64,000 bases of DNA from a phage: sequence record PZ445524.1, one strand, 5' to 3'. The notes beneath the pieces are model-generated. The model saw nothing but the letters and a program-made list of their open reading frames with translations, did not search any database and was not told the origin of the DNA. A program made the translations under genes and the position numbers. This document shows, one piece after another, positions 2,148 through 45,275 of the stretch (the first letter of the stretch is position 1; every line of letters begins with the position of its first letter).

Positions 2148-3276
<1,129 letters not shown>

Positions 3277-41827: not shown

Positions 41828-42031
41828 TTAATTCATATTACGCTTAATAACTTCAGCAACTTCTAGTAATTCATCTTTAGTTGCGGTGTCGGATTGAATT
41901 TTATCTCTAATATCCTTAAAGCGGTTTTTAAATTCTTCGGCTTCTCCCATATCGAAAAAGCGTTGAATGATTCTATATTCTCGATGAACTGCTTTATCAA
42001 AAAGTTCTAAATTTACTCTATATGATTTCAT
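41828..42031 (-). CDS. hypothetical protein (67 aa)
   Basis: ATG with GAGGA SD; early promoter upstream. Confidence 0.55.
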
Positions 42032-42054
42032 TTCAATATCCTCATTTGCCCAAT

Positions 42055-42086
42055 TAATTATACCACATCCTTGTGGTAAAGTAAAC
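42055..42086 (-). promoter_or_regulatory. early promoter upstream of ORF 41828..42031
   Basis: - strand GTTTAC overlapping the gene 60 stop, then a -10-like element. Confidence 0.45.
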
Positions 42087-42618
42087 TACTGGCTCATCCA
42101 TTCTTTACGAAGGTCAGCATTATCTCCCATGAGCATTTCAAAAAGCTCTTTCCAGTTCTCAGGAAGTTTAACAACATCATATACTGGATTTTGAATCATT
42201 TCACGATATTCAGATTTTTCCAAAGAGCCAAGTCCTTTAATATAACGGATGCTATGTTTAGGTAAAGCATCTTTAGCACTCTCATATTCAGCGACTGTAT
42301 AAAACCATTCTTGTTTTTTACCGACCTGAGCGATGATTACAGGAGTTTTGACAAAGCGAATTCTTCCTTGTTCAAACAGTTCTGGCCAATTACTAAAAAA
42401 TCCGAGCAAAGAAGGATAAATAGAACCTAATCCAATAATCTCTTAATTATGAGGTATTTCTATAGATAGCCCGAAGGCTATCCATCGTGATCTGCGTCTG
42501 TCATAATAGCGACATTCGCATAGTTCATTGAAGAGGATTTAATAGAACGACGAACATTGTTCTGCAATTTATATTTTTTCATATCAACGCTAGAAGAATC
42601 AATTTTTACAAATTTCAT
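42086..42618 (-). CDS. 60: DNA topoisomerase II small subunit gp60, with 50-nt translational bypass (codons 1-46 at 42481..42618, codons 47-160 at 42086..42430)
   Basis: ATG 42616-42618 (MKFVKIDSS); codon 46 GGA then UAG; landing GGA 42431-42433; resumes UUA GGU (LGSIYPS...). Confidence 0.9.
42431..42483 (-). other. gene 60 translational bypass element (take-off GGA, UAG stop, stem-loop, landing GGA)
   Basis: - strand reads GGA UAGCCUUCGGGCUAUC...UUAUU GGA; UUCG tetraloop hairpin directly 3' of the take-off codon. Confidence 0.85.
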
Positions 42619-43417
42619 TATACACCTCATAGAACTTTTCATCAGGAATCCAACCGCGTTTAAATTCATTAAATGCTCGGCCGAATAATTTTGAATTCAC
42701 AGTTATATTATTAACTGATTTCCATTTAGCAACTCCCGTTCGTTTATAATGATCGGGGTCATATTTCGTGACGTACCATTCATATAAATTTGGTATTAAT
42801 TTTACAGCCTCTGGATTTGTCGCTGATTTATTATACCATGGTTTCGCTTTTTCAAGTTCAGCTGCTTTTGCAGTAGCAGCAACAGTATTTCCAATACCAA
42901 CTAATTTTTCAGCTTTAATGCGTGGATCATTAACATGAAGACGAAAAACTTCGCCTTTTTCATTTTTAAAGCATGTCATGCCTTTAATTCCAGGAAGCTT
43001 AACACCTTTATTAACACCGCACCATTCCTTTGGGTTAAATGATCCTTTAATTAATAAGGCGCATTTACCCGATTTAATACTTCTCATTAAAACTTTATCT
43101 TTCATAAAGTTTTTTGACCATTCAGATACTGCTCTTTGATGGTAAATTCTAGCAATTTCATATAATTTACTAGAACGTAAATATTTTTCAGTGTTTAACA
43201 TTCTATTCATCGCATATGCCATTTCACGATTACGATGAATTTTATATAGTAGAAAATGTGCTAAAAAGTGTTCACGAAAAGTCAGTTTCACCAAATTTTC
43301 TTTATCATCAGAACCTCCCATTGATCTTGGAAGGATATGATGAATTTCACCCTTAAATTTAGAAACGCGGGTTTTACCCCGCACTATTAAGTCATTATAG
43401 ATTTTTTCGTAATTCAC
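42599..43417 (-). CDS. mobA: HNH homing-endonuclease-like protein (Mob family) between genes 39 and 60
   Basis: 272 aa; HNH motif EIHHILPRSMGGSDDKENLVKLTFREH; no ATG near N-terminus (GTG start), overlaps gene 39 end and gene 60 start. Confidence 0.65.
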   Translation of the reverse strand: MNYEKIYNDLIVRGKTRVSKFKGEIHHILPRSMGGSDDKENLVKLTFREHFLAHFLLYKIHRNREMAYAMNRMLNTEKYLRSSKLYEIARIYHQRAVSEWSKNFMKDKVLMRSIKSGKCALLIKGSFNPKEWCGVNKGVKLPGIKGMTCFKNEKGEVFRLHVNDPRIKAEKLVGIGNTVAATAKAAELEKAKPWYNKSATNPEAVKLIPNLYEWYVTKYDPDHYKRTGVAKWKSVNNITVNSKLFGRAFNEFKRGWIPDEKFYEVYNEICKN

Positions 43418-44945
43418 CTACTGTTATCCATTTACCATTAATCTGTACTTCATCATTTTCATTTACGATAATTGTATCGCCATTTAGTTCGAAAGTAAAC
43501 CACTCGCCATCTTCTTTTTCTTCAAACGCCTTTTCACCAAGAACTAGACCAGTGATTGCGCAAATATCAAATAGTTCTTTGTTTTTAAGCATATCGGCAT
43601 ATGACATACCCCAGCTATTAAGAACTTTACCGCGCAATGGATAACCACCATGAAGTTCTTTATCGCGAACATCAATAAGATATCCGATAGCAGAATCACC
43701 CTCAGTCAAGAAAAGAGTAGTGTCAGCATCTTTACCGCAAAGATTCGCTTTGATATGTTTATGAACCTTAGCTTTAGAAGCCTTTTTAGCTGCTTTAGTT
43801 TCTGCTGCTTTTTCTGCCGCCAATTTACGAGCCAAAGCAGCTTCAATAATCGGCATCAGAATTGCTTCATTATTTAGAATAGCGCGTGAAATCTTTTTAG
43901 CATCAAGCTGAATATGACTACGAATTTCACCAAATGGAGAAGTCAAACGCTCTTTAGTTTGAGAATCAAATCGCATGTTTTTCATATCACGAACAAACAT
44001 AACGATAGTCAAACATTCTTTAACACGTGCTTTAGTTACATCAATTTTGAACTTACGTTTGATTTGTGGAATAAGGTCTTCACAAATATCATCCATAACA
44101 CAGTCAATGTGATGGCCACCATTCTTAGTGTGGATGTTATTCACATAAGTTAATTGACGAAATCCATCCGGTGAACGACCAACCGCAATAGAACAATTTT
44201 CTTGTTCTTGAACAATAGCATGTTCATCATACTGCCGTGCATATTTCTTAAAATTGCCCTGAACCTTTTTACCATTAAAGGTAAATTGGATATCAGGATA
44301 AACAACAGCAAGTGTCTGGAGACGATCTAGTGTAATGTCAAGATAAACTTGGGACAGCTCATTAGTTTCAAATGACATAAAATCAGGAATGAAAGTAACA
44401 CGAGTTCCTTTCCATTTTCCAGGAATATCTTCCCATGATTTATTTTCCATGCCATTTGAACAACGAACTACAATATTATTTTGACCATCGCCAGTTTCAC
44501 CAACAAACATCACAGAAAAAATGTTTGTCAAACTAGAACCAACACCATTCATACCGCCAGTGACGCGTTCTTTATCATCACCAAAGTTACCACCTGCTTT
44601 TGGAATAGTCCATGCAGCAACAGGACCAGGAATTTCTTCACCGGTAGGTGTTTTAACCATCGCTTGTGGAATACCACGACCGTTATCTTCAACTGTTACT
44701 TGATTGTTTTTAATAGTAACATTAATTTTATTTGCGAATTTAAACTTAGTACGAATACCTTCATCTACTGAGTTATCGATAATTTCATCAATAAGCTTAA
44801 CAAGACCAGGTACATACTGAACACTTTCCCATTTACCAAACAGAAAGCGCTCATGCATTTCATTAGCAGAAGAGCCAATATACATGCCGCTACGCTTTTT
44901 GATATGTTCAATATCGCTCAGAATTTTAATTTCATTCTTAATCAT
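43395..44945 (-). CDS. 39: DNA topoisomerase II large subunit gp39 (GyrB-like ATPase)
   Basis: 516 aa from ATG 44943-44945 with GAGGA SD; ATPase motifs GLVKLIDEIIDNSVDE and GRGIP. Confidence 0.92.
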   Translation of the reverse strand: MIKNEIKILSDIEHIKKRSGMYIGSSANEMHERFLFGKWESVQYVPGLVKLIDEIIDNSVDEGIRTKFKFANKINVTIKNNQVTVEDNGRGIPQAMVKTPTGEEIPGPVAAWTIPKAGGNFGDDKERVTGGMNGVGSSLTNIFSVMFVGETGDGQNNIVVRCSNGMENKSWEDIPGKWKGTRVTFIPDFMSFETNELSQVYLDITLDRLQTLAVVYPDIQFTFNGKKVQGNFKKYARQYDEHAIVQEQENCSIAVGRSPDGFRQLTYVNNIHTKNGGHHIDCVMDDICEDLIPQIKRKFKIDVTKARVKECLTIVMFVRDMKNMRFDSQTKERLTSPFGEIRSHIQLDAKKISRAILNNEAILMPIIEAALARKLAAEKAAETKAAKKASKAKVHKHIKANLCGKDADTTLFLTEGDSAIGYLIDVRDKELHGGYPLRGKVLNSWGMSYADMLKNKELFDICAITGLVLGEKAFEEKEDGEWFTFELNGDTIIVNENDEVQINGKWITVGELRKNL

Positions 44946-45014
44946 CACTTATCCTCGTTTGGTTTCGGGAATATTATACTCCAATAATCATAAAGCTAAA
45001 GGCCCGAAGGCCTT

Positions 45015-45275
45015 TTATTTAAAACGAATAGTCGAATCCTTGAAGAATAGTCCAGAACATACTGTTCCTTCTACTTTCTGCCCAGTAGGTCCAATAGCAC
45101 GAAATCCAGTATGCTGGAAATCATTTTCAGAGCAACCGAACCAATTATATCCAGTGATTTCAATATTAGTAAAACCACTTGAAGACAAAACTTTGGTTGC
45201 ATTATCAGCATCAGTACATCCTATTAAAGACACTGCTAATACTAATGCTGCAATAGAACGATTAATATATTTCAT
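45015..45275 (-). CDS. putative lipoprotein (86 aa)
   Basis: Signal peptide with lipobox SLIGC. Confidence 0.5.
   Translation of the reverse strand: MKYINRSIAALVLAVSLIGCTDADNATKVLSSSGFTNIEITGYNWFGCSENDFQHTGFRAIGPTGQKVEGTVCSGLFFKDSTIRFK

Follow-up and report, generated by a model that had tools for sequence, protein, structure and literature searches.

The minus-strand open reading frame at positions 42599–43417 of the window, which is the whole 64,000-nucleotide stretch of phage DNA analysed (sequence record PZ445524.1), is identified by sequence comparison as mobA of a T4-like phage. Very probably it is a free-standing HNH homing endonuclease gene carried on a 1.1-kb cassette, with a GUG start and with translation that is probably coupled to that of gene 39. 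The locus, including the GUG start and the overlap, has already been described in the literature and nothing in it is new; it is a textbook locus, its cassette being the one with the well-known 50-nt hop of ribosomes in T4 gene 60, and its re-examination is of value mainly for the housekeeping of annotation.

The frame appears in the open reading frame listing of the window as 272 codons followed by a TGA stop, and it was confirmed in every element of its initial annotation, namely the lack of an ATG in the first ~30 codons, GTG at 43417 and overlaps with both genes 39 and 60. The same annotation took gene 60 to encode the small topoisomerase subunit, but gp60 is instead the C-terminal piece of the large subunit. 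The genes are in the order 39, mobA, 60 and are placed as follows.

43395–44945, minus strand: gene 39, encoding the N-terminal portion (516 aa) of the large subunit of topoisomerase II and preceded by a GAGGA Shine-Dalgarno sequence of its own
43395–43417, minus strand: 23-nt overlap of gene 39 and mobA, proposed termination and re-initiation zone; the gene 39 stop codon is TAA at 43397–43395
42599–43417, minus strand: mobA coding sequence, free-standing HNH homing endonuclease, at the same coordinates as the annotated mobA of T4T, BF15, HY01 and LH2
42599–42618, minus strand: 20-nt overlap of the 3’-end of mobA and the 5’-end of gene 60; the gene 60 ATG is at 42618–42616

The 2951 nt around mobA matched 552 phage records, the best being those of T4-like Tequatroviruses, with BF15 as the closest record (98.6% identity), followed by T4T and other isolates of T4 (98.1%). 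The positions of mobA, 39 and 60 coincide with those in the curated T4T annotation, where rIIA.1, 60 (joined over a 50-nt ‘translational bypass’), mobA (‘homing endonuclease’) and 39 all lie at the constant offset of 39628. The predicted protein was 99.3–99.6% identical to MobA of ~40 T4-like phages. As the closest homologue had an E value of 3.8e-181 and PHROG 655, ‘homing endonuclease’, matched with E = 2.5e-57, the open reading frame is not a chance one.

The single 60plus39 gene of phage RB14 was used as the fused-gene reference. Window positions 45081–43528 aligned with it at 97.6% identity and positions 42434–42000 at 97.0%, identity being lost abruptly between them. The breakpoints lie at 43528/43527 and at ~42422, and the insert starts after nt 1418 of the fused gene. 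This alignment had been proposed as a check on the suggestion that an endonuclease insertion split a fused topoisomerase gene, and with flanks at 97–98% and clean breakpoints it bears that suggestion out. The parts of the insert are given below.

42422–43527, minus strand: complete MobA mobile cassette, 1106 nt long and standing in place of 64 nt of the fused gene (at the least 42435–43527, as delimited by BLAST)
43398–43527, minus strand: cassette-encoded C-terminal extension of gp39, 43 aa, FEEKEDGEW...ELRKNL (identity to RB14 stops at 43528)
42481–42618, minus strand: gene 60 codons 1–46, cassette-encoded N-terminal extension plus homR, to the take-off GGA, MKFVKIDSS...TDADHDG(stop); in T4T, join(2458..2802, 2853..2990)
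42482–42527, minus strand: homR, cassette copy of the replaced topoisomerase segment, 46 nt, 78% identical to RB14
42431–42480, minus strand: 50-nt translational bypass (coding gap) of gene 60, UAG to landing GGA; a misc_feature in T4T and HY01
42086–42430, minus strand: gene 60 codons 47–160 and stop, with ancestral topoisomerase sequence from ~42421 downstream

The bypass reads GAU GGA UAG ...47 nt... GGA UUA at 42483–42428, with matched take-off and landing GGA codons and UAG after the take-off codon, and the 3’-end of the cassette is 9 nt beyond the landing codon. Neither the 43-aa tail of gp39 nor the 46-codon head of gene 60 is present in the fused RB14 gene; the last 20 nt of the tail also encode MobA residues 1–7 in another frame. 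In the preferred reading, the cassette supplies the gp39 tail, mobA, the gp60 head with a diverged copy of the replaced segment, and the 50-nt bypass. The published element is 1097–1106 nt long and inserted at nt 1399–1419, ending just after D490/G491 (Manning and Atkins 2022, 10.1101/2022.08.31.505936). It replaces 55–75 nt, with a deletion of 64 nt in HY01 and with 9 nt beyond the bypass in clade 1 (10.1101/2022.08.31.505936). The size of the window cassette and its 64-nt deletion agree with clade 1 and HY01, all of the defining features that can be read from sequence are present, and the locus is on this evidence a member of the MobA cassette family. MobA is reported to nick the cassette-free gene 39 of phage T2, with high-frequency inheritance in mixed infections (PMC2988022). 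The bypass insert is described as protecting the carrier’s own DNA, mobility being attributed to Bonocora et al. 2011 as cited by Manning and Atkins 2022.

The HNH motif was located by Pfam, by alignment of homologues and by a profile match.

43256–43348, minus strand: HNH motif, codons 24–54 (EIHHILPRSMGGSDDKENLVKLTFREHFLAH)

Residues H26-H27, N41, H50 and H54 are all present in MobA; in the alignment of its homologues N41, H50 and H54 do not vary, and conservation of H26/H27 is 90% or more. The Pfam HNH family (PF01844) matched with E = 7e-4 at 20.1 bits, just below the gathering cutoff of 21.4, and the sole match in NCBIfam was a sub-threshold IscB HNH. The MobA family profile matched solved HNH domains, namely 6me0 (E = 7e-4) and Cas8-HNH (0.035). 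The AlphaFold model (pLDDT 79, pTM 0.50) places strands at residues 24–27 and 42–45 and a helix at 47–61. This model is elongated and multi-domain, and a whole-model Foldseek search of the PDB returned no matches at E ≤ 0.001, while low-scoring matches of the HNH domain were to Cas8-HNH with a probability of 0.6–0.75. T4 MobA is described as nicking its target in one strand (Edgell et al. 2010, PMC2988022; Bonocora et al. 2011 as cited by Manning and Atkins 2022).

Two in-frame codons bear on where the gene begins.

43415–43417, minus strand: GTG, inferred initiation codon of mobA, from the in-frame stops upstream and the homologous start codons
43319–43321, minus strand: the first ATG of the frame, codon 33, within the HNH motif (sequence ...HHILPRSMGG...), not the start

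Comparison of homologues gives good support to GUG 43417 as the first codon of the frame, at the position where sister clades have AUG. The codons directly upstream are TAA CAG TAG (translation ...G(stop)Q(stop)VNYEKIY), so that the frame cannot open earlier. The N-terminus MNYxKIYxxLI is common to 12 homologues, with the same start residue, down to 29% identity. When the start codon was read in the DNA of fourteen lineages, the homologous position was found to be used throughout, with ATG in eight of them (S16, two Acinetobacter phages, Aeromonas AS-gz and four metagenomic contigs) and GTG in the T4-like clade, in three Proteus-like sequences and in Shewanella phage Thanatos-1. The GTG is invariant in eight T4-like genomes. 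In the model, residues 3–16 form a confident helix leading into the HNH strand-strand-helix, with a pLDDT of 89 for the first 10 residues. Of the free-standing endonuclease genes of T4, mobA alone has been listed as ‘predicted to start at a GUG codon’ (Edgell, Gibb and Belfort 2010, PMC2988022). The non-AUG start is on this evidence a conserved homologous initiation position and no mark of decay.

It is very unlikely that translation starts elsewhere in the frame, at the GTG of codon 12 (43384) or the ATG of codon 33, to give a shorter MobA. The mobA fragment of AF158101 is annotated from codon 12, annotation pipelines in some cases place the start at codon 33 or at an ATG further on, and a good Shine-Dalgarno sequence is absent at every candidate start, but residues 1–11 (MNYEKIYNDLI) are kept across clades to 29% identity and are part of the confident predicted helix. 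Codon 12, the only nearby alternative start, is GCG in HY03, and the sequence upstream of it has zero anti-Shine-Dalgarno pairing. Codon 33 follows H26/H27, so that a product begun there would be without these two histidines, with which the HNH motif opens, and would lack the catalytic histidine. An N-terminal peptide predicted from the GUG start is NYEK... / NYEKIYNDLIVR. Wrong starts, at codon 33 or a later ATG, were found in some records, among them pSe_SNUABM_01 (240 aa) and the RefSeq record of AS-gz. With mobA mis-started or split in several genome records, a proteomics study lists the protein only as the hypothetical “gp60.1”.

Initiation at GUG 43417 is likely to be weak and to depend on coupling to gene 39. 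Gene 39 itself has its GAGGA 6 nt upstream of the start, and the GAGGUG of gene 60 sits inside mobA, 4 nt before the gene 60 start. At the mobA GUG no Shine-Dalgarno sequence was found at a distance of 4–10 nt, the sole complementarity, UAGGUG, including the start codon itself. A sequestering hairpin as in other T4 endonuclease genes was sought by RNA folding around the mobA start, which gave no significant structure (z = -0.77), and an Rfam search of positions 42000–45100 returned one chance-level match, far under the gathering score. Most sister clades overlap gene 39 by 4 nt, as ATGA or GTGA, the classic coupling arrangement, and in two lineages without the overlap the ATG is preceded by AAGGTG or GGAG. 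Taken together, the absence of a usable Shine-Dalgarno sequence and of structure and the ATGA/GTGA overlaps of sister clades suggest translation by ribosomes coming straight from termination on gene 39. A substitution of A by G at 43396 in HY01 is tolerated in both frames, changing the gene 39 stop from TAA to TGA and MobA N8 to D. A GCGGG/CCCGC hairpin at 43382–43367 was considered and set aside: it is not terminator-like, and its sequence is lost in S16 though the same amino acids are encoded.

A promoter scan upstream of mobA gave a 9/12 match as its sole candidate, with eight hits in the region against 14.2 in shuffled sequences. The gene is listed as a promoter-less cassette, ribosome scanning across the 23-bp overlap after termination of the upstream open reading frame has been proposed for it, and T4 homing endonucleases are as a rule attenuated in expression (Edgell et al. 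2010, PMC2988022). With neither a promoter nor a usable Shine-Dalgarno sequence of its own, mobA would be read from the gene 39 transcript. Judging from the arrangement, ribosomes would finish gene 39 twenty nt downstream of the GUG and re-initiate at this nearby codon. The output of MobA would in this way be tied to the translation of gene 39 and kept modest, as is usual for phage homing endonucleases.

The overlap also contains an A6 run, and a +1 slip of tRNA-Lys on 43407–43402 (CGA AAA AAU to AAA AUC) would land exactly in the mobA frame, past the TAG that closes it. It is nevertheless extremely improbable that part of MobA is made in this manner as a gp39-MobA fusion. All eight T4-like genomes have the run, a conservation that is uninformative because the whole of mobA is >99% identical among them, and the run merely spells the conserved E4-K5-I6. 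No stimulatory element is evident, there being no structure and the next codon in the 0 frame, AAU, not being rare; the Proteus-like clade lacks the run although its two frames are related in the same way, and in clades with the ATGA overlap the run has no bearing. The fusion is predicted to be a product of ~90 kDa with the junction peptide ...GELRKIYNDLIVR. Were it made, the homing endonuclease would be tethered to the topoisomerase, and the missing AUG and Shine-Dalgarno sequence would matter less than they seem.

Evidence for the product comes from the supplementary tables of a time-resolved proteomic study of T4 itself, and not of the phage of the window (PMC9697503; Wolfram-Schauerte et al. 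2022). In the older annotation on which that study relied, ‘60.1’ is the name of the 3’ third of mobA, and sequence comparison equated gp60.1 with MobA residues 147–272. The entry (P39487) is classed as early RNA and late protein. With the order of LFQ columns deduced from the stated design (eight time points, three replicates each), a single replicate of the three gave a signal at each of 5 and 8 min, and every replicate did so at 12, 20 and 30 min, with values of 1.1–2.4e8. Late values were 3–5e8 for gp60, 2–5e8 for MobB and MobD, ~1e8 for MobE and ~0.5e8 for I-TevI. The mobA frame is translated in T4 at a level ordinary for homing endonucleases; as the search database held the C-terminal MobA fragment only, its peptides do not separate GUG 43417 from an internal start.

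These data bear on a second route to the same GUG, namely independent initiation in place of coupling to gene 39, by 30S subunits binding an unstructured A/U-rich region or on a separate cassette transcript. The start region is indeed A-rich and unstructured by the folding score given above, and a T4-early-like TTTACT-17-TACAAT lies at 43499–43471, ~55 nt upstream, with both hexamers kept in eight genomes. MobA also appears later than gp60 (robustly at 12 min against 3–5 min), where simple 1:1 coupling predicts otherwise, but late first detection may just mean low abundance near the detection limit. Promoter-like hits are rarer in the region than in shuffled sequences, as noted, and both the published listing of the cassette as promoter-less and the ATGA/GTGA overlaps of most sister clades favour coupling. 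Independent initiation is accordingly considered unlikely, though it deserves some weight, and coupling to gene 39 is the preferred reading. The initial suggestion that the gene may be poorly expressed holds for initiation, which is probably weak in view of the lack of a usable Shine-Dalgarno sequence, and fails for the product, which in T4 is found at levels like those of MobB, MobD and MobE.

The same annotation regarded the gene as an old insertion that may now be decaying, and neither part of this agrees with its distribution and variation. The cassette was found in only ~43 of the 552 phage records with a T4-like topoisomerase region, and over the central 601 nt of mobA every carrier is at least 99.5% identical, apart from the old T4 records AF158101/NC_000866 (97.4%) and X06220 (95.9%). 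Synonymous diversity (pS) was 0.022 in mobA against 0.140 in the flanking ancestral part of gene 39 and 0.106 in that of gene 60. The value for mobA, ~6-fold below that of gene 39, indicates that the endonuclease copies of T4-like phages go back to a more recent common ancestor than do the copies of the host gene. Sporadic presence together with near-identity is the expected signature of homing, and the pattern, as published (10.1101/2022.08.31.505936), is read from these comparisons as that of a recently spread element and not of an old relic. The gene is intact, with no internal stops, in all eight T4-like genomes; its variable codons are nine synonymous and three non-synonymous, and pN/pS = 0.04, which is taken as purifying selection.

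The T4 reference sequence gives a different impression. AF158101/NC_000866 splits the gene into a 37-codon ‘MobA pseudogene’ and ‘60.1’, and on this basis the mobA of laboratory T4 is still described as defective (a 2010 review; Manning and Atkins 2022, 10.1101/2022.08.31.505936). Compared with T4T, BF15 and the window, AF158101 contains 11 single-base insertions and several substitutions within ~300 nt, all of them absent from every other T4 record examined. Most likely the ‘pseudogene’ annotation reflects old sequencing errors.

There is little probability left for the reading of mobA as a decaying or non-functional old remnant, kept because its excision would harm the topoisomerase genes. 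It draws on the lack of an ATG and of a usable Shine-Dalgarno sequence, on the label ‘MobA homing endonuclease pseudogene’ and the 2010 review that calls the gene apparently defective, and on cases of true decay in relatives, UoN_LG358_1 having lost ~11 nt at the mobA 5’-end and further pseudogenised or deleted copies being listed by Manning and Atkins (10.1101/2022.08.31.505936). Against this, the GTG is exactly at the position of the sister-clade ATG, the catalytic residues are invariant, the eight genomes have the intact frames and the low pN/pS just described, and the differences of AF158101 fit old sequencing errors. The product is moreover detected in T4 (PMC9697503), and nicking and high-frequency inheritance are reported (PMC2988022). 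An intact and mobile endonuclease gene remains the preferred reading.

The closest known system is that of T4. The host genome of the window is not T4 itself, being 98.1% identical to it over the mobA region, and its MobA is 99.3% identical to the T4 protein, from which it has two amino-acid differences; codon comparison shows one of the two, A169T, and at K154 a change that is synonymous. The two phages agree in gene, position, length (272 aa), start codon and overlaps. The T4 mobA/gene 60 bypass cassette likewise has the same parts (C-terminal extension, MobA, N-terminal extension, homR and 50-nt bypass) and the same breakpoints relative to the fused gene (10.1101/2022.08.31.505936). In other clades, represented by S16 (Gelderlandvirus), Proteus phage Pm5461, Acinetobacter Lazarusvirus, Shewanella phage Thanatos-1 and Aeromonas phage AS-gz, MobA is found at the same insertion between split topoisomerase open reading frames and has the same MNYxKIY N-terminus, at 37–60% protein identity. 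The overlap with gene 39 differs, with 23 nt in the T4-like clade, 14 nt in the Proteus-like clade and 4 nt in most others.

MobE of T4 and Aeh1, a free-standing HNH endonuclease encoded between or within nrd genes, is of the same Mob type, with an N-terminal HNH and a distinct C-terminal region (PMC2988022). Its gene, like mobA, is promoter-less and overlaps the upstream open reading frame, and coupling has been proposed to limit its expression (PMC2988022). In Aeh1 the host gene is also split into two functional pieces with added tails, whereas the target gene is different, the start is AUG and there is no bypass element. I-HmuI and I-HmuII of Bacillus phages are, like MobA, HNH nicking homing endonucleases that home via a single-strand nick (PMC2988022). 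Neither gave a sequence match with MobA in the solved-structure or fold search, and both are intron-encoded, whereas MobA is free-standing.

The MobA cassette (42422..43527, minus strand), a mobile element inserted in the fused topoisomerase gene of T4-like phages, is a mosaic. Across the central 601 nt of mobA (42700-43300), HY01, PEC04, pSe_SNUABM_01, JEP6 and ELT1 share 100.0% identity with the window and HY03 shares 99.8%, whereas in the adjoining 198 nt (43330-43527), which comprise the cassette-encoded C-terminal extension of gp39 (the gp39 tail) and the 5' end of mobA, identity in the same six genomes is 95.5-97.0%. Synonymous diversity in the gp39 tail (pS = 0.133) reaches the level of the ancestral flanks. 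The near-identity of the core set against the diverged adjoining segment, together with the high pS of the gp39 tail, suggests recombination within the cassette near 43300-43340 or, alternatively, that one resident cassette had its mobA core replaced by that of another.

HY01 has a single A to G change at window position 43396, where gene 39 and mobA overlap: the TAA stop of gene 39 becomes TGA, and residue 8 of MobA is D instead of N. This is a neat case of one substitution tolerated by two overlapping frames. At the other end of gene 39, the ORF listing adds one codon at 44946..44948 (minus strand), beginning the frame at GTG (MMIKNEIK...); the start supported by annotation and a Shine-Dalgarno (SD) sequence is the ATG at 44945.

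The T4 reference record AF158101.6 (850-1690, corresponding to window 42599-43417) carries a mobA with 11 single-base insertions and several substitutions, found in no other T4 isolate record examined, and it is these that split the gene into a 'MobA pseudogene' and 'gp60.1' in the annotation. Legacy sequencing error is very likely their source, and they are still carried into UniProt (P39487) and omics analyses. Several other deposited annotations begin mobA at an internal ATG, by which the catalytic histidines are lost:

pSe_SNUABM_01, 850-1572: mobA annotated from an internal ATG
UoN_LG358_1, 2082-2795: mobA annotated from an internal ATG
AS-gz RefSeq, 2088-2840: mobA annotated from an internal ATG

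In UoN_LG358_1 this annotation goes together with a genuine loss of about 11 nt directly behind the start codon, with S16 as reference.

Two elements lie close to the mobA start:

43499..43471, minus strand: T4-early-like promoter match TTTACT-17-TACAAT, in the gp39 tail; the mobA start follows about 55 nt downstream
43382..43367, minus strand: small GC hairpin GCGGG-GUAAAA-CCCGC, with GUUUCU after it, within mobA codons 12-17, 13 nt past the gene 39 stop

Both hexamers of the promoter match are kept in eight genomes; in the promoter scan the match could not be told apart statistically from background, and mobA has been described as promoter-less (Edgell et al. 2010, PMC2988022). The hairpin is the sole stable element of the centroid fold and received no terminator call; in S16 its sequence is not conserved, while the encoded amino acids are.

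Among MobA clades (loci L004-L010 and L017-L022, from other records) the mobA start codon alternates between ATG and GTG without tracking protein similarity. Both lineages with a free-standing SD start at ATG. One possible reason for the switching is that, where initiation proceeds by re-initiation, the identity of the start codon is under weak selection. T4-like phages use GTG, whereas S16, their nearest clade, uses ATG; the Proteus-like and Shewanella clades have GTG, and those of Acinetobacter and Aeromonas ATG.
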